Virus record (IMG/VR): IMGVR_UViG_3300033520_000026
Coordinates: 113,114 to 133,113 of that record
Source of the DNA: an uncultured virus (IMG/VR IMGVR_UViG_3300033520_000026)
Lineage: Duplodnaviria > Heunggongvirae > Uroviricota > Caudoviricetes
Strand: one strand, 5' to 3'
DNA length: 20,000 nucleotides
Shown: positions 5,294-18,605 of the stretch, piece by piece
Numbering within the stretch: the first letter of the stretch is position 1
Layout of the letters: every line of letters starts with the position of its first letter
The notes under the pieces: model-generated
What the model saw: only the letters and a program-made list of their open reading frames with translations
The model's database searches: none
Told to the model about the DNA's origin: nothing
Position numbers and translations under genes: made by a program

Positions 5294-5770
5294 ATGATAG
5301 ATGTCATCACAAAACGATGCTTTAAGTGCGGACTCATCAAGCAAATAGGTGATTTCTATCGACACAGTGAAACGGCAGACGGACACCTTGGGAAGTGCAA
5401 AGAGTGCGCGAAAAGAGATACAACTGAGCGCAGAAATGCCAAGTTGAGCGAGGTTAGGGCCTATGATTGTAATCGCGCCCGCGCCACTCGTCCAGAACGA
5501 CGGGCACAGAATACAGAATACAATAGGATATATCACAGAAAAGATCCCAGGCGCGGAGTTGCTTATAGAAAGATTTCAAGATTAGTTCTGTCTGGAAAGA
5601 TAGACCGCAAGCCGTGTCAGTGGTGTGGAAGAGAGGAAAATGTTCATGCCCATCATGAAGATTACGATTTTCCGTTGGATGTGATTTGGTTATGTCCGCC
5701 ATGCCATAAGCGTCGGCACATTGAAATAAAGGCTGGAGTTCCATTGGACAAGGATAAGACATGCGGGTAG
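5294..5770 (+). CDS. Phage HNH-type endonuclease with N-terminal Zn ribbon
   Basis: CFKC...FY...DG...CKEC N-terminus. C-terminal CQWC...HAHHEDYDFPLDVIWLCPPCHKRRH. Visibly more AT-rich than its flanks. Confidence 0.8.
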   Translation: MIDVITKRCFKCGLIKQIGDFYRHSETADGHLGKCKECAKRDTTERRNAKLSEVRAYDCNRARATRPERRAQNTEYNRIYHRKDPRRGVAYRKISRLVLSGKIDRKPCQWCGREENVHAHHEDYDFPLDVIWLCPPCHKRRHIEIKAGVPLDKDKTCG

Positions 5771-7308
5771 AGATCGCGGGGTACGCCTGGCTGGATCGAG
5801 CAGCTTTGACAGACCGCCAGGTTTCCAACATTGTCACTCGGCTGACCATTCAGCCGAGAAAGACGTCTGATATTGATTCGGTGGAGACACCGGATCCCAT
5901 CCGTTTGTACCGCCTAGATGAAGATCGACAGTTGATAGGCGTGCCTCGCGGTTTCTACCGGCAGATGAGCAAGGGGTTGAATGACGAGGTCTTGCGCATT
6001 GGGTGGGGAAAGCCCATGCGGAAGTTGGAGACGACGGCGCGGTTTGAGGGTCCGTTTGCCGAGCAGGCCGAGGCCATCGACACGCTGGTGACAGCGTTGT
6101 ATCCGCCTGAGACGTGCCCGGAGAACCCGCCGTGGGGCGGGGCGCTGCTACAGGCACAGCCGGCGTTCGGCAAGACGGCATGTGCTTTGGAGGTAGCTCG
6201 ACGCCTTGGTCGGAGAACGCTTATCCTCGTCCATCAGGAGTTCTTCCTGGACCAGTGGCGCAAGCGGATCGAACAGTTCTTGCCGGAAGCGCGGATCGGC
6301 ATCATCCAGCAGGATCGCGTGGAGTATGATCGCACCAAGGGTGGGGAGGCCCCGGACTTCGTGATCGGGCTCTTGCAGAGTCTGGCGCGGGACACGGGCG
6401 GGCGGTATCCCAGGGAGATGTACGAGGGCACCTTTGGTTTAATTATAAGCGACGAGACGCACCGGCTGGGGGCGGCGAGCTGGGGGGACATCATCCCGAA
6501 ATTCGACGCGGCCTACCGCCTGGGTCTGACGGCGACGCCTCGGCGCAAGGACGGGGCCGAGGACGTGTTCTTCCACCACATCGCGCCGGTCACGTACCGG
6601 GCGACCACGGAGTCGGTGCGCCCTCGATTGCGGAAGATCGTGACGACGACGGAGGTGCGATCTATTTCGCGTGGTGAGTACAAGGTGCCCGTTGACCAGT
6701 TGAACAGCGCTCAGATCATCAATCAGGTGTGTTTGGACACGTTTCGGACGCAGGCTATTGCAGACGACATCGTGCAGGCGGTGAAGGTTGGGCGGAAGAT
6801 CATGGTGGTGAGTGCCCGGCTGGAGCATTTGCGGGTCATGGCAGAGCGCACAGGGCAGGCGTTGTTCAATTTGAACCTGCCTTTCGTGCCCATCATGGAC
6901 TTCTACACGGGGGAGTGGTTTACAGGGGAGGTTTGGGAAACATCGAACAAGTCGCACAAGCGGGGCGATTTAAAGATGGCATCTCGGACGCAGGTCGATC
7001 TTGAGCGTGCGGAGCGGGCCAACGTGATTTTTGCTACCCCCCAGCTTTGCATGGAGGGACTCGATATTCCAGCATTGGATGTCATGTTGATGGCGACCCC
7101 GATTAGCGATGTGGAGCAGTTGACAGGGCGGGTGCGGCGCTGGTGTGTTCCTGGGAAGCAGTGTGCTCACTATTGCCCTTGGAGGGCGGGCAAATGCAAG
7201 GGCAAACCCATCCCGATCATCGTAGATGTGGTGGATGAGAGGATCCCGCGTTTACGTGGTATGGCTGCCAGACGCGAGAAATTTTACAAAACCTGTTGCA
7301 CGATGTAA
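5761..7308 (+). CDS. Superfamily 2 DExH helicase (UvsW/A18/Rad25-like)
   Basis: Motif I PAFGKT, Ia LILVH, II DETH, III GLTATP, V EGLDIP, VI QLTGRVRR. Confidence 0.92.
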   Translation: MRVEIAGYAWLDRAALTDRQVSNIVTRLTIQPRKTSDIDSVETPDPIRLYRLDEDRQLIGVPRGFYRQMSKGLNDEVLRIGWGKPMRKLETTARFEGPFAEQAEAIDTLVTALYPPETCPENPPWGGALLQAQPAFGKTACALEVARRLGRRTLILVHQEFFLDQWRKRIEQFLPEARIGIIQQDRVEYDRTKGGEAPDFVIGLLQSLARDTGGRYPREMYEGTFGLIISDETHRLGAASWGDIIPKFDAAYRLGLTATPRRKDGAEDVFFHHIAPVTYRATTESVRPRLRKIVTTTEVRSISRGEYKVPVDQLNSAQIINQVCLDTFRTQAIADDIVQAVKVGRKIMVVSARLEHLRVMAERTGQALFNLNLPFVPIMDFYTGEWFTGEVWETSNKSHKRGDLKMASRTQVDLERAERANVIFATPQLCMEGLDIPALDVMLMATPISDVEQLTGRVRRWCVPGKQCAHYCPWRAGKCKGKPIPIIVDVVDERIPRLRGMAARREKFYKTCCTM

Positions 7309-11015: not shown

Positions 11016-11666
11016 ATGTTTCTACCGTGTACGATTCCAGATGGTCAGTCGGGCGCGTGGCGCGTCGAGCGTTGCGTCGTGAGTGAGTGCGAAGCTCGGA
11101 TCGAGAACATGCGGAGTGCGTTCTCAAGAGTGCGGCAGCTTCCGGTGAATCCGGGCACGTATGTCCGGCTGGTCGGGCCGGGCGGGATCTGGATGAGCGA
11201 TACGCAGAGCGAGGTTGGGGATCACTTCGCGCCGATCAGGCGGGCTGGGGTGGTCGGCGGGCATTGCCTTGTGACGGGTCTCGGGCTTGGCCTGGTCACG
11301 GAGGCGCTGTTGGCGATCCAATCCGTGACGCGGGTGACGGTAATCGAGCTGGAGCCGGACGTGATCGCGCTTATTGGTCCGACGTTGCGGGAGCGCTGGG
11401 GAGACCGGCTGGAGATCGTGCAGGCGGACGCTCTGACGTGGCGACCTCCACGGGGGGTACGCTACAGCGTCGTCTGGCACGACATCTGGCTGTACATCTG
11501 CGCGGACAACCAGGCGAGCATGACGACGTTGAAGAGGAGGTACGCTTTTCGGGCGGACTGGCAGCGGTGTTGGCGGGAGGAGTCTGTACGGAAGGTGAAT
11601 CGGGAGGATCGGAAGGCAGCGCGGCAGATGGCGTTTTGGAAGCGTGTGCGCCAAGCGAACGGATGA
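11016..11666 (+). CDS. Class I SAM-dependent transferase, spermidine-synthase-like
   Basis: WMSDT..E, motif I LVTGLGLG, VTVIELEPDVI, IVQADA, VVWHDIW. Confidence 0.8.
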   Translation: MFLPCTIPDGQSGAWRVERCVVSECEARIENMRSAFSRVRQLPVNPGTYVRLVGPGGIWMSDTQSEVGDHFAPIRRAGVVGGHCLVTGLGLGLVTEALLAIQSVTRVTVIELEPDVIALIGPTLRERWGDRLEIVQADALTWRPPRGVRYSVVWHDIWLYICADNQASMTTLKRRYAFRADWQRCWREESVRKVNREDRKAARQMAFWKRVRQANG

Positions 11667-13451: not shown

Positions 13452-13546
13452 TGGGGGCCACGCCCATGAGTGACAAACAGGATCGTCCCGCGTGTCCGCT
13501 GTGCGGCAGTCCCTATTGGAATCGTCCGAGAAAGGGTCCGAAGTGA
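13451..13546 (+). CDS. 31-aa CxxC micro-protein MGATPMSDKQDRPACPLCGSPYWNRPRKGPK (not in the ORF track)
   Basis: The ATG overlaps the upstream stop (TGATG) after GGAGGAG, and its TGA overlaps the tnpB GTG (GTGA). Alternative start at 13466. Confidence 0.55.
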   Translation: MGATPMSDKQDRPACPLCGSPYWNRPRKGPK

Positions 13547-14759
13547 AGTCCTACCGCACCGAGTTAGACCCCAACAATGCGCAGCGCACGGCGTTTATGC
13601 GTCATGCCGGTGCGGCGCGGTGGGCGTTCAACTGGGGCTTGCGGCGCAAGATTGAGGTTTATGAACAGACGGGCAAGAGTCCCTCGGCCATCGATCTACA
13701 CCGCGAGTTAAACGTCTTGAAAAAGACGGACGTGCCGTGGATGTACGAGGTTAGCAAGTGCGCGCCACAAGAGGCCCTACGGAATCTCGACAAGGCGTTT
13801 GAGGGGTTCTTCCGGCGGTGCAAAGCGGGGGCGGCCAAGAAGGGATATCCGCGCTTCAAGAGCCGTAAGCGGGGCATCGGCACATTCACGTTGACCGGGG
13901 CAATCAAGGCTACCGATCATACGATCCAACTCCCGCGCATCGGCATAGTACGCCTCAAAGAGCATGGGTACTTTCCGACGGGCACGCCAATCGTGGCTGC
14001 CGTGGTCTCCGAACGGGCTGGCCGATGGTTTGCGACGATCTGCACGATGGCGGTGCCCCAGCGCCTGCTTGGCACCGAGGTGTTTGGGGTCGATGTGGGC
14101 ATTAAGGCGATGGCAGTGCTGAGCGATGGGACCGCCTTTGAGAATCCCAAGGCGCTCAAGGTGGCAGAATCCCGCATCAAGCGGCTACAGCAGGCAGCGA
14201 GTCGCAAGCAGAAGGGCTCGATGAATCGGAAGAAAGCGATCCAGCGCTTAGCCAGGCAGCATTACCGGGTGGTTTGCGTGCGCAACGACGCGATTCACAA
14301 GTGTTCGAACGCGATAACCAAGCGGGCGCACACGGTGATCCTTGAATCGTTGAACGTCGCAGGTATGCTCAAAAACCACTGTCTAGCTAAGGCGATCTCC
14401 GATGCGGGCATGGCGGAGCTGCATCGGCAGATTACCTACAAGATGGCGTGGGCGGGTGGTACCGTGATCCAAGCGGATCGCTGGTACCCGAGCAGTAAGA
14501 CGTGCTCAGCGTGTGGGCTTGTAAAGGACGATCTGGCATTGGCGGATCGGACGTTTCGCTGTGAATGTGGGTTTGAGATTGATCGCGACCACAACGCCGC
14601 GATCAATCTAAGGAATCTCGCCGGGAGTTCCCCGGTGACAGCCTGTGGAGAGGACCGCGCTGGCGGGCGTTCAACGACGCTCGTGAAACGGACCTCGACG
14701 AAGCAGGAACCTAACACCGGACAGGGCATGTCCCTATTTGGGTTAGTTTAGGAGAACGG
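13456..14759 (+). mobile_element. Non-autonomous tnpB-only element (IS607/IS1341-like); boundaries inferred
   Basis: tnpB without tnpA. The 3' end reads TTAGTTTAGGAGAACGG. A TGGG at 13452-13455 precedes the inferred left end. GG occurs at both junctions, as expected for IS607. Confidence 0.5.
13543..14751 (+). CDS. tnpB: RNA-guided endonuclease TnpB (IS200/IS605/IS607 OrfB)
   Basis: N-terminal YRTELDPNN...HAGAARWAFNWGL; YPRFKS; RuvC-I GVDVG; RuvC-II ILESLNV; Zn finger SSKTCSAC..CEC; RuvC-III DRDHNAAINL. All three catalytic acids are present. Likely GTG start at 13543. Confidence 0.95.
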   Translation: MKSYRTELDPNNAQRTAFMRHAGAARWAFNWGLRRKIEVYEQTGKSPSAIDLHRELNVLKKTDVPWMYEVSKCAPQEALRNLDKAFEGFFRRCKAGAAKKGYPRFKSRKRGIGTFTLTGAIKATDHTIQLPRIGIVRLKEHGYFPTGTPIVAAVVSERAGRWFATICTMAVPQRLLGTEVFGVDVGIKAMAVLSDGTAFENPKALKVAESRIKRLQQAASRKQKGSMNRKKAIQRLARQHYRVVCVRNDAIHKCSNAITKRAHTVILESLNVAGMLKNHCLAKAISDAGMAELHRQITYKMAWAGGTVIQADRWYPSSKTCSACGLVKDDLALADRTFRCECGFEIDRDHNAAINLRNLAGSSPVTACGEDRAGGRSTTLVKRTSTKQEPNTGQGMSLFGLV

Positions 14760-15700: not shown

Positions 15701-15898
15701 ATGGATAACGGGCAGGTGGACGAGGGGGTTTTGGCGACTGGTGGCTACTGCCACAAGAGGGTCGCAGGGTGTTTCTGTGCGGTGGGCTGGCCGGTGGAGC
15801 GCCAGTGTCCAAAGTGCCGGGATCTGTGGGTAGAGGGGGCGTTCCGGTTCTCGTACTGCGTCTGTCCGCCCGATGATGATGAGAGGGAAAAGCCATGA
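15701..15898 (+). CDS. Small Cys-rich protein
   Basis: 7 Cys in 65 aa; coupled to the next ORF. Confidence 0.55.
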   Translation: MDNGQVDEGVLATGGYCHKRVAGCFCAVGWPVERQCPKCRDLWVEGAFRFSYCVCPPDDDEREKP

Positions 15899-16152
15899 AG
15901 AAGGTGCGACGAGTGTGGGCAACAAATATGGTTGCGACCAGTGTTGAGACCGAAATGACCATCAACGGGCAGAAGGTATGGAAGCGGTTGAGCTGTCCAT
16001 TGTCTCATTCCGCTGGGGACGTGGACTACTGCGGAGAGTGGTGCGCCTGGTTCAATGTGGAGATGATCCGGGGCGAACTCGGGGTGCCAGATCGGGAGGT
16101 CGTCACTTGCAAGGGGACGCCCATAGGGGAGATTGTCGAGGGCAAGTCATGA
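15895..16152 (+). CDS. Hypothetical protein (CP...C..WCAWF)
   Basis: ATGA-coupled; SD GAGGGA. Confidence 0.65.
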   Translation: MKKVRRVWATNMVATSVETEMTINGQKVWKRLSCPLSHSAGDVDYCGEWCAWFNVEMIRGELGVPDREVVTCKGTPIGEIVEGKS

Positions 16153-16358
16153 GCCAGAGTATCCAGTGGGCGCGGCGGTGCGGGGCGTGCAGGCACTGGC
16201 AGGCGACTGTGCATCCGGTGGGTGGCGAGTGTACGGCAGACGTGCCGTTCTGGGTGGACGAGGCCGGGGGCATGCAGCGGGAGGCGCGGTTCGTGGCGAG
16301 GGATGAGGTGCGGGCGACGGGGTGTGACAAGTTCACGCCGACGTTCGCGCATAGATGA
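16149..16358 (+). CDS. Small Cys protein (CxxCxHW...C...C)
   Basis: ATGA-coupled start at 16149, within ORF 15978-16358. Confidence 0.6.
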   Translation: MSQSIQWARRCGACRHWQATVHPVGGECTADVPFWVDEAGGMQREARFVARDEVRATGCDKFTPTFAHR

Positions 16359-16765: not shown

Positions 16766-16978
16766 ATGAGTAAGTGGAAGATCGAGGCGAGCGCGGTGGT
16801 GAGTTTGCGGTTTGATGTGGAAGCAGAGGATGAGGACGAGGCCAATGACAAGGCTCTCGAACTTGCGAAGCAGATCCGGGGGACCATGAAGGGCGGACTC
16901 TCCGTGCCTACCGGGGTGCATCTTGGGTGGCCGGGCGCGGATACTCTGACCTGGGAAGATACCGAAGAGGGTGGATGA
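16766..16978 (+). CDS. Hypothetical protein (VEAEDEDEA motif)
   Basis: SD AAGGAG. The V-E-A-x-x-x-x-E-A pattern is common in small phage proteins. Confidence 0.65.
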   Translation: MSKWKIEASAVVSLRFDVEAEDEDEANDKALELAKQIRGTMKGGLSVPTGVHLGWPGADTLTWEDTEEGG

Positions 16979-17244
16979 TGAAGTTCGGGACGAAGTTTTG
17001 GCTGCGCCGGGGGTCCATGTTTCGCCATGCTGGAGTAGGGAGAGCGCGGTTCGTGGCGGCGCGGTTGCTATTTTGCCGGGGAGAGCAGGTGTACGCGGAG
17101 TTGCTAGAGGACGATCCGGGGACGGACGATGCGAAGACGTGTCACGCGGGACAGCGGGGGTGGTGGAGTCGGACATCCGTATCCCTTTGGGAGGACGAGC
17201 GCCCGAAAGCGCATGCTGGGAACTACATCAGCTATGACTTTTAA
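16975..17244 (+). CDS. Hypothetical protein
   Basis: ATGA-coupled start at 16975; ends 3 nt before operator copy 4. Confidence 0.55.
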   Translation: MMKFGTKFWLRRGSMFRHAGVGRARFVAARLLFCRGEQVYAELLEDDPGTDDAKTCHAGQRGWWSRTSVSLWEDERPKAHAGNYISYDF

Positions 17245-17299: not shown

Positions 17300-17620
17300 G
17301 TGATGACGAGTGCAACATTAGAAGGCAATAGCAGGATATTTCTCAGGAGTGCTTCGTCTCTTCATGGAATTATTAGGGTCACACGGTGTGAGACGCCGCC
17401 AACGATGCTGTTCGTGATGCTCGATGACCCAAAGTGCAAGGATGAGTCACTCGATCTGAGGACGCCTCAGATCAACATCGAGCAGTACGTGCGGGTGTCT
17501 AAGTTGCCGAAGGATATGCAGGAGGCGATTCGGTCGTACGTGTTGAGCCATGCGGATCTCAAAATAGAACGAGCGTTGTTGCACCCACATACATTGCTTG
17601 AGCTGGAGGAGAAGCCATGA
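17300..17620 (+). CDS. Hypothetical protein
   Basis: 106-aa ORF after operator 4; SD AAAGGG. Confidence 0.6.
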   Translation: MMTSATLEGNSRIFLRSASSLHGIIRVTRCETPPTMLFVMLDDPKCKDESLDLRTPQINIEQYVRVSKLPKDMQEAIRSYVLSHADLKIERALLHPHTLLELEEKP

Positions 17621-18081
17621 AGGTGATGTTCACGTTAGAGTTTTCCGATGACGAACGGATGGCGATAGCGCATGAGCGTGGTGATATAGAGTTGGGGTCA
17701 CGGGATGGTGTGCCGAGTTTGGCGTCACGGGAGAGCGTGCAGAATTGGGCACGGCGGAAGATCGAGGCGGCCATATACGGATTGGTTCAAGAGTACCTGG
17801 CGAAACAGAATCTTGAGAATGAGGAATTGATCCAGGTTTCTGATTTGAAGATCGAACGGTGGCGGTCCACTGCCAGCGTGGCCGATCCCCCCAATGCTGT
17901 GCGCATCCTGCATGTGCCGTCTCGGATTGTGGTGGAGAGCAGTGAGCGTGTCCCTTTCCTTGAGAACCGGCGATGTGCGATGGCCAAGTTACGGGAGCGG
18001 CTGGCCGAGGAGAAGGCTGGGATGTGCCCGATCTGCCATTATCCGGTGAACAGCGGCCCATGCCAGAGGCTTCATCCATGA
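17617..18081 (+). CDS. Protein with a class I release factor (RF-1/PTH) domain lacking GGQ, plus a C-terminal CxxC..C..H
   Basis: DLKIERWRS...NAVRILHVPSRIVVESSE.....NRRCAMAKLRERL aligns with RF1 [54 protein letters not shown]. Confidence 0.7.
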   Translation: MKVMFTLEFSDDERMAIAHERGDIELGSRDGVPSLASRESVQNWARRKIEAAIYGLVQEYLAKQNLENEELIQVSDLKIERWRSTASVADPPNAVRILHVPSRIVVESSERVPFLENRRCAMAKLRERLAEEKAGMCPICHYPVNSGPCQRLHP

Positions 18082-18314
18082 GAGTGACCTTGGCGTTCGA
18101 TCTTGGCGATGTCGTCATCGGGATGGACGAGCATAGGAAATTGGACCTCTGTTTGCGGGCAGAGGCAATGCACGGTCTGCTTCTGGAGTTAGACGAGCGT
18201 TTGCGCACGCGGGAGAAGCATGTGTTGTTGTCTATTGCGACGTTGGACGAGATCGGGGAGTTGCGGACGTGGCTGTTGAACGAGATACAGGAGAGGACGA
18301 TTCCATGGGAGTAA
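18078..18314 (+). CDS. Hypothetical protein
   Basis: ATGA-coupled start at 18078. Confidence 0.65.
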   Translation: MRVTLAFDLGDVVIGMDEHRKLDLCLRAEAMHGLLLELDERLRTREKHVLLSIATLDEIGELRTWLLNEIQERTIPWE

Positions 18315-18323
18315 AGAAAGGAA

Positions 18324-18605
18324 TTGGCACCCGTATGCAAGAGGTTGGTAGACCTTGCATCGGGTGCGGTTGACTTCTGTTGTAGAAAAGCGCCGTGCGT
18401 TTATGGGACGTGTGATCCGGGCCAGGACTGCAAGCATTTGTTCTGGGATGGGCAGCGGTGGCGGTGCCACTTGATTGCGATGAGCCCGCCCCATGCAGAG
18501 GCACTCTACGCGGGCGAGGGGTGCTGTTGCGGGCTGAATACTTTTCAACGAGAGGGGCGTGTGCCAACGCCGGTCGAGGTCGAAGAGATGAGGAAACGAC
18601 GATGA
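18324..18605 (+). CDS. Cys-rich protein (possible Zn/Fe-S binder)
   Basis: FCCRKAPCVYG.C....C..L.W....WRC.L......GEGCCC. TTG start after AAGGA. Confidence 0.6.
   Translation: MAPVCKRLVDLASGAVDFCCRKAPCVYGTCDPGQDCKHLFWDGQRWRCHLIAMSPPHAEALYAGEGCCCGLNTFQREGRVPTPVEVEEMRKRR

Follow-up and report, generated by a model that had tools for sequence, protein, structure and literature searches.

Few catalytic modules of translation are as conserved as domain 3 of the bacterial release factors (RFs), whose GGQ loop is regarded as indispensable. The fold normally docks at the large ribosomal subunit's A site and peptidyl-transferase centre. It is already known that organellar RF domains of the bacterial type can lose the GGQ, and phage mini-domains that lack it are annotated in databases. 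The present analysis concerns a gene of an uncultured virus (Caudoviricetes) known from the 133-kb IMG/VR record IMGVR_UViG_3300033520_000026, estimated to be 72% complete, of which the last 20 kb (positions 113,114 to 133,113; 20,000 nucleotides, hereafter the window) were studied. The product of this gene, a protein of 154 residues termed P0001, contains an RF domain 3 without the GGQ, set between two further modules.

Among described proteins, bacterial-type RF domains without the catalytic glutamine include plant mtRF2b and an extra ICT1 of ticks (excerpts of PMC3472500), as well as MRPS35 (excerpts of PMC6514570). Occupancy of the A site without hydrolysis has been reported for Balon and Dom34 (excerpts of PMC10901736, PMC6514570 and PMC3472500). 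In factors of the ArfB/YaeJ type, which act without a codon-reading domain, binding to the empty mRNA channel requires a flexible linker and a basic C-terminal helix (excerpts of PMC3950681). For phages, a literature search that left supplements aside found no paper describing or testing RF domains without the GGQ. The terms ‘phage’ and ‘viral’ were absent from the term-searched text of a survey of RF evolution (PMC6514570), as was ‘release factor’ from that of a paper on phage polyvalent proteins (PMC5512222).

A release-factor domain 3 lacking the GGQ loop

The Pfam RF-1 profile (PF00472) matches residues 74-132 of P0001 on profile positions 9-72 of 116 with an E-value of 3.3e-5, at a score of 24.2 bits that falls below the curated cut-off of 35 bits. 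A stronger match is given by phrog_20323, ‘RF-1 domain peptide chain release factor’, positions 2-64 of 73 of which are covered by residues 72-131 (E 3.5e-10, 40.6 bits; PHROGs have no curated cut-off). The combination of this core with the C-terminal tail of P0001 was found in 11 clusters at 90% identity (P0001-P0007 and P0014-P0017, here called the family), in a search of 5.8 billion clustered proteins and 1.84 billion representatives; all stem from contigs of viral or metagenomic origin, whose lengths reach 169 kb. Each of the seven family members scanned matched PF00472 (best E 7.3e-8). Among further relatives, P0014 (37.4 bits) and P0015 (39.1 bits) pass the cut-off and P0016 (29.2 bits) falls below it. 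When an alignment of seven family sequences was compared with 20 canonical RF fragments using hhalign, the two were aligned over 62 columns with a probability of 97.9% (E 4.7e-13), and homology to RF-1 is therefore supported despite the cut-off missed by the single sequence. At the level of individual chains, release factors made up 24 of the 25 Protein Data Bank (PDB) entries that phmmer matched to P0001 at E <= 10 (best E 0.0033). No match to PF03462 (PCRF) was found in P0001 at E <= 10, and codon-recognition domains, with their PxT or SPF tripeptide, were not found.

The structural models point the same way. An AlphaFold2 (AF2) model built from a 10-sequence alignment has a mean pLDDT of 76.4, rising to 80-91 in the core, where strands at residues 77-82, 94-99 and 104-108 and a helix at 114-133 reproduce the three-stranded sheet and long helix of RF domain 3. 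All 13 PDB matches returned by Foldseek at E <= 1e-3 are domain 3 of RF1, RF2 or mtRF1, with a root-mean-square deviation (rmsd) of about 2 A over 68-77 columns. In a VIA search against representatives the first seven ranks are likewise all occupied by the RF family (RF1, mtRF1, PrfH, RF2 and mtRF-R; Z 8.3-10.0), and the ESM Atlas model also matches RF1, over residues 67-136. The net charge of the core, 0 to +4 across the family, compares with 0 to +6 in 12 canonical cores. Residues 72-133 of P0001 thus carry a bacterial RF domain 3. The first-pass annotation, made from the letters of the sequence, had likened positions 17830-18003 (residues 72-129 of the open reading frame (ORF) 17617..18081) to domain 3 of RF1, RF2 and ArfB, and this is borne out by Pfam, phrog_20323, hhalign, Foldseek and VIA alike.

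What the domain has lost is equally well defined. HMMER, MAFFT and hhalign all place a single four-residue gap over xGGQ, and P0001 reads R-STASVADPPN-A at this point, with 10 residues between the flanking R and A compared with 14 in canonical sequences; the earlier description of a 13-residue loop exchanged for the nine residues TASVADPPN amounts to the same count. The GGQ columns are gaps in all 11 family members and are present in all 19 canonical fragments. Conservation was scored in the 11 members over 24 columns, those with a conservation of 85% or more in the canonical fragments. Fourteen of these are identical in at least nine members, and in a further column T has become S in all 11. 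The columns kept include D76, L77, R83, V88, A94, R96, I97, H99, P101, N117, A121 and L125, of which V88 aligns with the conserved V that follows GGQ-H (18/19 canonical, 11/11 family). The structural core has therefore been kept, and the catalytic loop has been replaced together with several canonical residues that flank it in sequence. As the GGQ columns are deleted throughout the family, P0001 cannot hydrolyse peptidyl-tRNA by the GGQ mechanism, and in that respect the domain is catalytically dead, as had been proposed.

The replacement loop is not uniform. It has 10 residues in most members, 11 in P0015 (SPDSRVNQADN) and eight in P0016 and P0017, whose segment reads PGSVDGPYN. This bears on whether P0001 might still hydrolyse peptidyl-tRNA by means of a different residue in the loop, for instance the conserved Asp in VADP. 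Acidic or polar residues are indeed common in the short loop, with D90 present in 9/11 members. The loop is, however, four residues shorter, has neither Gly-Gly nor Gln, and differs in length and sequence among members (P0015 compared with P0016 and P0017); the catalytic glutamine is, moreover, treated as a criterion of activity in the RF survey (excerpts of PMC6514570). Retained hydrolysis is accordingly very improbable.

The same deletion speaks against a decoy for PrmC (HemK), the methyltransferase that modifies the GGQ glutamine of RF1 and RF2, which the first-pass annotation had put forward as one candidate role. P0001 would in this case soak up the enzyme, and the domain-3 fold is the one feature that favours it; the presence of 2b3t_B, RF1 in complex with PrmC, among the fold matches (E 0.034) is explained by that chain being RF1. 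The part of the substrate that was deleted, in all 11 members, is the very loop bearing the methylated glutamine, and no HemK-like gene was found in the window, where the one methyltransferase (11016-11663) matches phrog_15480 and, weakly, RrnaAD. The PrmC proposal is thus highly unlikely and was not upheld.

Architecture, distribution and selection of the family

The domain is embedded in a compact gene (Table 1) that is present as a single copy within the 133-kb record. ATGA overlaps join it to its neighbours on both sides, the start codon sharing bases with the stop of the upstream ORF 17300-17620 and the stop codon with the ATG of a downstream 78-codon ORF, 18078-18314. The three parts of P0001 differ in net charge: -5 for the N-terminal part, +3 for the core and +1 for the tail.

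Table 1. Coordinates of the gene for P0001 and of its parts, in window numbering
Feature	Position	Strand	Description
Shine-Dalgarno-like GGAGGAG	17605-17611	+	5 nt before the P0001 ATG; read directly from the sequence
Whole coding sequence (P0001)	17617..18081	+	154 aa plus stop
N-terminal module, type A (residues 1-71)	17617..17829	+	acidic, net -5; two helices in the model
RF domain 3 core (residues 72-133)	17830..18015	+	sequence and structure evidence
Shortened loop STASVADPPN (residues 84-93)	17866..17895	+	replaces the 14-residue GGQ loop; 4-residue alignment gap
C-terminal tail (residues 134-154)	18016..18078	+	C137, C140, C149, H153; CX2CX8CX3H putative zinc knuckle

The tail, 21 residues directly after the domain helix, follows the pattern G-x-CPIC-x-x-x-x-NSG-x-CQR-x-H-x, in which C137, C140, C149 and H153 are invariant in 11/11 family members. 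This spacing is what suggests a zinc knuckle; the tail has no sequence match in Pfam or the PDB, and its net charge is 0 to +2 across the family. A fusion of the domain to an N-terminal region of no recognised family and a CPICH..C..H tail had been noted at the outset, and both extensions are present, with the four putative ligand positions conserved as above.

The N-terminal region exists in two forms. Type A (P0001-6 and P0015, seven members) is predicted by AF2 to contain helices at residues 11-21 and 38-67 with a pLDDT of 53-80; it has no sequence or profile match in Pfam or the PDB, and in the Atlas model it resembles small viral hypothetical proteins (TM 0.53-0.71). Type B (P0007, P0014, P0016 and P0017) is modelled as a four-helix unit (pLDDT 85-93) joined to the core through a disordered linker (pLDDT <50). 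The alignments used are shallow, at 10 and 14 sequences, and in VIA searches with the full-length proteins the lists were taken up by the RF core. The two types are mutually unrelated, yet both stand ahead of the same core and tail. In the locus L003 the type-B gene (5716-6240) lies between homologues of the window ORFs 16927-17244 and 18078-18314, so that types A and B occupy one syntenic position and represent a domain swap within a single gene slot. That the same core and tail recur behind two unrelated N-terminal modules at one slot identifies core plus tail as the constant working unit.

Two other ideas about the N-terminal part found no support. A ribbon-helix-helix fold gave no match in Pfam or PDB profile searches; the full-length AF2 model of type A has no N-terminal strand, the net charge of the seven type-A members is -2 to -6, and the Atlas neighbours are unnamed viral proteins or chains without a family name on the aligned part. 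Paralogy with the downstream ORF 18078-18314 was dropped after BLASTP of the N-terminal part gave no alignment.

The family is sparsely distributed. Three of its loci are in IMG/VR and two more in the JGI metagenome collection, and none was found in 185,579 prokaryote species genomes, hence no prophage copies there. A profile search gave 48 matches, 12 of them without the GGQ and 20 with it, the other 16 being mostly labelled PCRF and RF-1 in precomputed Pfam annotation. Scoring of 26 candidate longer fused forms of 271-2000 aa yielded none at E <= 0.001, which is weak evidence on such fusions; P0012, a repetitive protein of 796 aa (E 3.2e-4) that matched residues 53-87 in five stretches, was set aside as a likely repeat artefact. 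An acidic head, a core with the loop excised and a CCCH tail make up an architecture that is rare and appears undescribed.

The gene is maintained. Nei-Gojobori estimates from six nucleotide copies, with five pairs for the whole gene, gave dN/dS values of 0.19-0.36 at dS of 0.22-0.87 (one-sided Fisher p 1e-10 to 1e-5); these pairs are not all independent, since L021 hardly differs from L001 and P0005 is the product of L022. By part, the values are 0.20-0.36 for the core, 0.26-0.44 for the N-terminal module and 0.05-0.25 for the tail, which is the most constrained. The reading frame is intact in all six copies. Neutral decay of the homologues, the outcome that the first-pass annotation had named as contrary to its proposal, is excluded by dN/dS values in this range.

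A 236-codon ORF (17630-18340) runs antisense across the entire RF-like gene; as substitutions follow the plus-strand frame, it is read as a by-product of the 58% GC content. Together with the sub-threshold Pfam score of P0001, this opposite-strand frame is what could be cited for a decaying remnant or a mis-called ORF without function. The dN/dS values and intact frames contradict this, as do the strong Shine-Dalgarno sequence, the invariant Cys and His positions and the confidently folded core, and a functionless ORF is scarcely credible. The gene encodes a real, selected protein of three parts: an acidic head, an RF domain 3 with xGGQ deleted, and a Cys-Cys-Cys-His tail.

Beyond the family, more distant RF-1 domains without the GGQ occur in P0010 (76 aa), P0011 (132 aa) and P0013 (273 aa), the last a metagenome protein in which an N-terminal InPase domain (PF18823) is fused to the RF-1 domain. 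The InPase part resembles ‘minor head proteins’ found in PB1-like Pseudomonas phages as well as the ‘mega protein’ of Atu_ph07. Domains of this type have been reported from polyvalent proteins of phages, for which injection was predicted (excerpts of PMC5512222), and the P0013 fusion is a hint that virion or injected proteins carry some of the dead RF domains.

These features of distribution and architecture are relevant to a role as a protein-binding decoy or adaptor. The dead domain would mimic domain 3 of RF1 or RF2 and titrate a host or rival-element protein that recognises RFs, such as a modifying enzyme, a toxin or a defence sensor, with the acidic head as a second contact. The N-terminal modules are acidic in 11/11 members (-2 to -7; -2 to -6 for type A), and their exchange between two unrelated folds at one locus resembles arms-race turnover. 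The upstream neighbour also evolves fast, its identity between phages being 37-46% where that of the RF-like proteins is 66-92%; the restriction to a few lineages and the InPase fusion fit the same picture. On the other side, the family has no obligatory conserved neighbour, the downstream 78-aa ORF being missing in L002, and what was removed, the GGQ loop, is the surface by which domain 3 is most readily recognised. Such a decoy is possible, if on the unlikely side.

Proposed ribosome binding without hydrolysis

A loop cleanly excised, a fold under purifying selection and a new putative metal-binding tail together argue that the RF fold has a second, non-hydrolytic use exploited by phages, and P0001 is probably a non-catalytic binder. 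As to its target, the reading tentatively preferred here is the large ribosomal subunit, in the region of the A site and peptidyl-transferase centre. A binding module directed at the large-subunit rRNA around these sites would be made up of the RF fold with its mildly basic helix, together with the putative zinc knuckle. Occupation of the site without release of the peptide would then damp or redirect termination or ribosome rescue during infection, and the exchangeable acidic N-terminal module may recruit or repel a second, lineage-specific partner.

This proposal, which we hold with less than even confidence, draws by analogy on the conservation of the fold, the retained basic helix and published precedents. 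RF-type domains without the glutamine that act non-catalytically on ribosomes are exemplified by Balon (excerpts of PMC10901736), and by MRPS35 and Dom34 (excerpts of PMC6514570). Purifying selection on all three parts of P0001, strongest on the tail, is also in its favour. So are the canonical columns and the net charge kept by the core, the recurrence of core plus tail behind unrelated heads, and the place of the gene in a run of small ORFs on one strand, downstream from the genes for replication and recombination.

Several observations weigh on the other side. The isolated GGQ domain of YaeJ, with residues 101-140 deleted, bound no ribosomes, binding having required the basic C-terminal tail (excerpts of PMC3950681), and P0001 has no YaeJ-type linker or basic tail, its own tail carrying at most +2. 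Canonical residues near the loop have been replaced: the N of HVN is kept in 1/11 members, the G of PTG in 2/11 and the E of ERSQ in none, and where RSQ has its Q all 11 have F, W or Y. A loop whose length ranges from 8 to 11 residues speaks against an exact fit into the peptidyl-transferase centre, and the N-terminal modules are acidic in every member. The genome, too, offers little that relates to translation, as aragorn found no tRNA genes in the 133-kb record, and RNA-repair, Pth or other translation genes were not found there, apart from a KH-domain ORF.

A more specific form of ribosome binding can be imagined, which must be regarded as speculative and rather unlikely as a whole. P0001 would be a virus-made ribosome silencer or anti-rescue factor that docks, through its dead domain and zinc knuckle, on the 50S subunit in the A site and peptidyl-transferase centre and holds peptidyl-tRNA in place or excludes RF1, RF2, ArfB or PrfH, thereby blocking termination or a host abortive-infection or rescue pathway, with swappable heads tuning it to hosts or defence proteins. 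If true, this would make P0001 a viral, bacterial-fold counterpart of Balon or Dom34, and would give the GGQ-less phrog_20323 family a function. More generally, a ribosome-binding P0001 would represent a translation modulator of a new type in phages and could serve as a small probe of the A site; should it bind something else, it would reveal a new partner of the RF fold.

Genome setting and comparison with known systems

Outside the window the record carries genes for a gp23 capsid protein of the T4 type, a tail sheath, gp19-type tube proteins and baseplate proteins, and the closest DnaB of a cultured phage is only 26-28% identical; the virus is therefore taken to be a large myovirus without a close cultured relative in the collection searched. 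Adjoining the gp23-type capsid gene is a gene (G000:C1:3156-4793, L015) whose 545-aa product carries a domain of the Mom family (PF25680, E 1.9e-9), and this may point to DNA modification in this phage. Within the window, a DnaC/DnaB/helicase/RecA-like/resolvase module lies upstream, and the RF-like gene follows downstream in a block of small same-strand ORFs. The window also holds a TnpB / IS605 OrfB-type gene in the early region (13492-14751, plus strand; HTH_OrfB_IS605, OrfB_IS605 and Cas12f1-like TNB; phrog_506, E 1e-107) and an HNH / endonuclease VII-like gene (5294-5770, plus strand; phrog_2340, E 2e-27) that overlaps a ResIII/DEAD helicase gene (5761-7308) by 10 nt. The gene call at 15895-16152 / 15978-16358 (plus strand) is ambiguous, because both overlapping frames match strongly in L001 and L002 by tblastn.

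The KH-domain ORF, 439-771 on the plus strand, is of the KhpA/KhpB type (PF13083, E 7.7e-12, above the cut-off). The first-pass annotation had taken this KhpA-like protein and the RF-like gene together as a sign of phage control over host translation, a link that is weakened, as the two lie 17 kb apart and nothing connects them. Stop-codon recoding was also considered for this genome and rejected: long open frames in code 11 cover 0.67-0.98 of each 10-kb bin with no recoded block, a measure that is crude at 59% GC.

Among described phage proteins, the nearest are those of phrog_20323, which is the best PHROG for P0001 and for all seven GGQ-less relatives scanned; phrog_3122, comprising phage mini release factors, matches P0001 weakly (E 0.04), and Atlas neighbour clusters of 66-72 aa with scores of 0.78-0.81 are a lead only. 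In a 72-column tree the zinc-tail family forms one long-stemmed group (support 93/96). The tree neither demonstrates nor rejects one clade uniting all 15 rows without the GGQ (p-AU 0.586); its branches are long, and the loop columns, in which these rows have gaps, were retained. Matches in cultured phages other than those of Acinetobacter (Enterococcus, Listeria, Staphylococcus and ‘Bacteriophage sp.’) proved, in the four of four that were opened, to be full-length canonical RF1 or RF2 with the GGQ. The ‘phage’ records with canonical RF genes, GenBank OR846590, OR848537, OR845006 and MT838602 (L007-L010), are marked UNVERIFIED, and these genes are for that reason probably host DNA; host RF genes in such assemblies inflate the apparent number of phage RFs.

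The phrog_20323 proteins, of about 76-78 aa, come from T4-like Acinetobacter phages (Twarogvirinae), such as gp136 of KARL-1 (YP_009881556.1). The latter also lacks the GGQ, reading …TSGARRWVNRPFNAVR…, and has an N-A-V-R motif in common with P0001, whose structure matches the proteins of Acinetobacter phages 133 and Henu6 with a TMt of 0.74-0.77. The Acinetobacter proteins are, however, bare and basic domains (+7 for P0008) whose loop falls just one residue short of the canonical length, whereas P0001 has a four-residue deletion, an extra 71-aa acidic module and the 21-aa CCCH tail, and so is not a stand-alone domain of about 75 aa. The settings differ as well: the Acinetobacter genes lie in a tRNA island, beside a gene for an RNA ligase / 2',3'-cyclic phosphodiesterase, and the record of P0001 is without tRNAs. 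In KARL-1 (L005) and Lazarus (L006) a conserved 80-aa ORF, to which no Pfam family was matched at E <= 0.1, precedes the 78-aa gene, which has the tRNA cluster / RNA ligase gene on one side and a tail-fibre gene on the other; the cluster as annotated in the Lazarus record includes a ‘tRNA-Pyl’. These Acinetobacter phage homologues provide a culturable system for testing.

The Acinetobacter setting lends some weight to a further alternative, that the fold and the CCCH-type knuckle have been reused away from the ribosome to bind tRNA, phage mRNA or another structured RNA. The GGQ-less mini-proteins encoded beside the tRNAs and the RNA-repair gene are basic, and after the RF family the next structural neighbours of P0001 in the VIA search are dsRNA-binding domains and HPF/RaiA-type folds (Z 5.7-7.4), a range that can reflect a common arrangement only. 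The absence of tRNA and RNA-repair genes from the findings in P0001's own record, and an overall charge that is not basic, detract from this reading, and it is judged unlikely.

Compared with cellular factors, P0001 shares with domain 3 of RF1 and RF2 a fold that superposes at Z 8.7-10.0 (rmsd 2.6-4.9 A over 72-80 residues), yet the GGQ, the PCRF and codon-recognition domains and a domain 4 following the helix are all missing from it. With ArfB/YaeJ, ICT1 and C12orf65 (mtRF-R) it has in common an RF domain 3 without a codon-reading domain, the VIA matches being 7a5h_C (Z 8.5), 4v95_AY (Z 6.9) and 2rsm (Z 6.9). These stand-alone factors keep the GGQ, the linker and the basic tail, none of which is present in P0001, and in its model no helix intervenes between the second and third strands.

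In losing the glutamine while the protein was retained, P0001 resembles MRPS35, mtRF2b, tick ICT1, Dom34/Pelota and Balon. It has nothing in common in sequence with the first three beyond the RF fold, and with Balon and Dom34, which have the archaeo-eukaryotic fold, no sequence relationship at all. All of these proteins are cellular or organellar, whereas P0001 is viral and places its loop-deleted domain in a different architecture.

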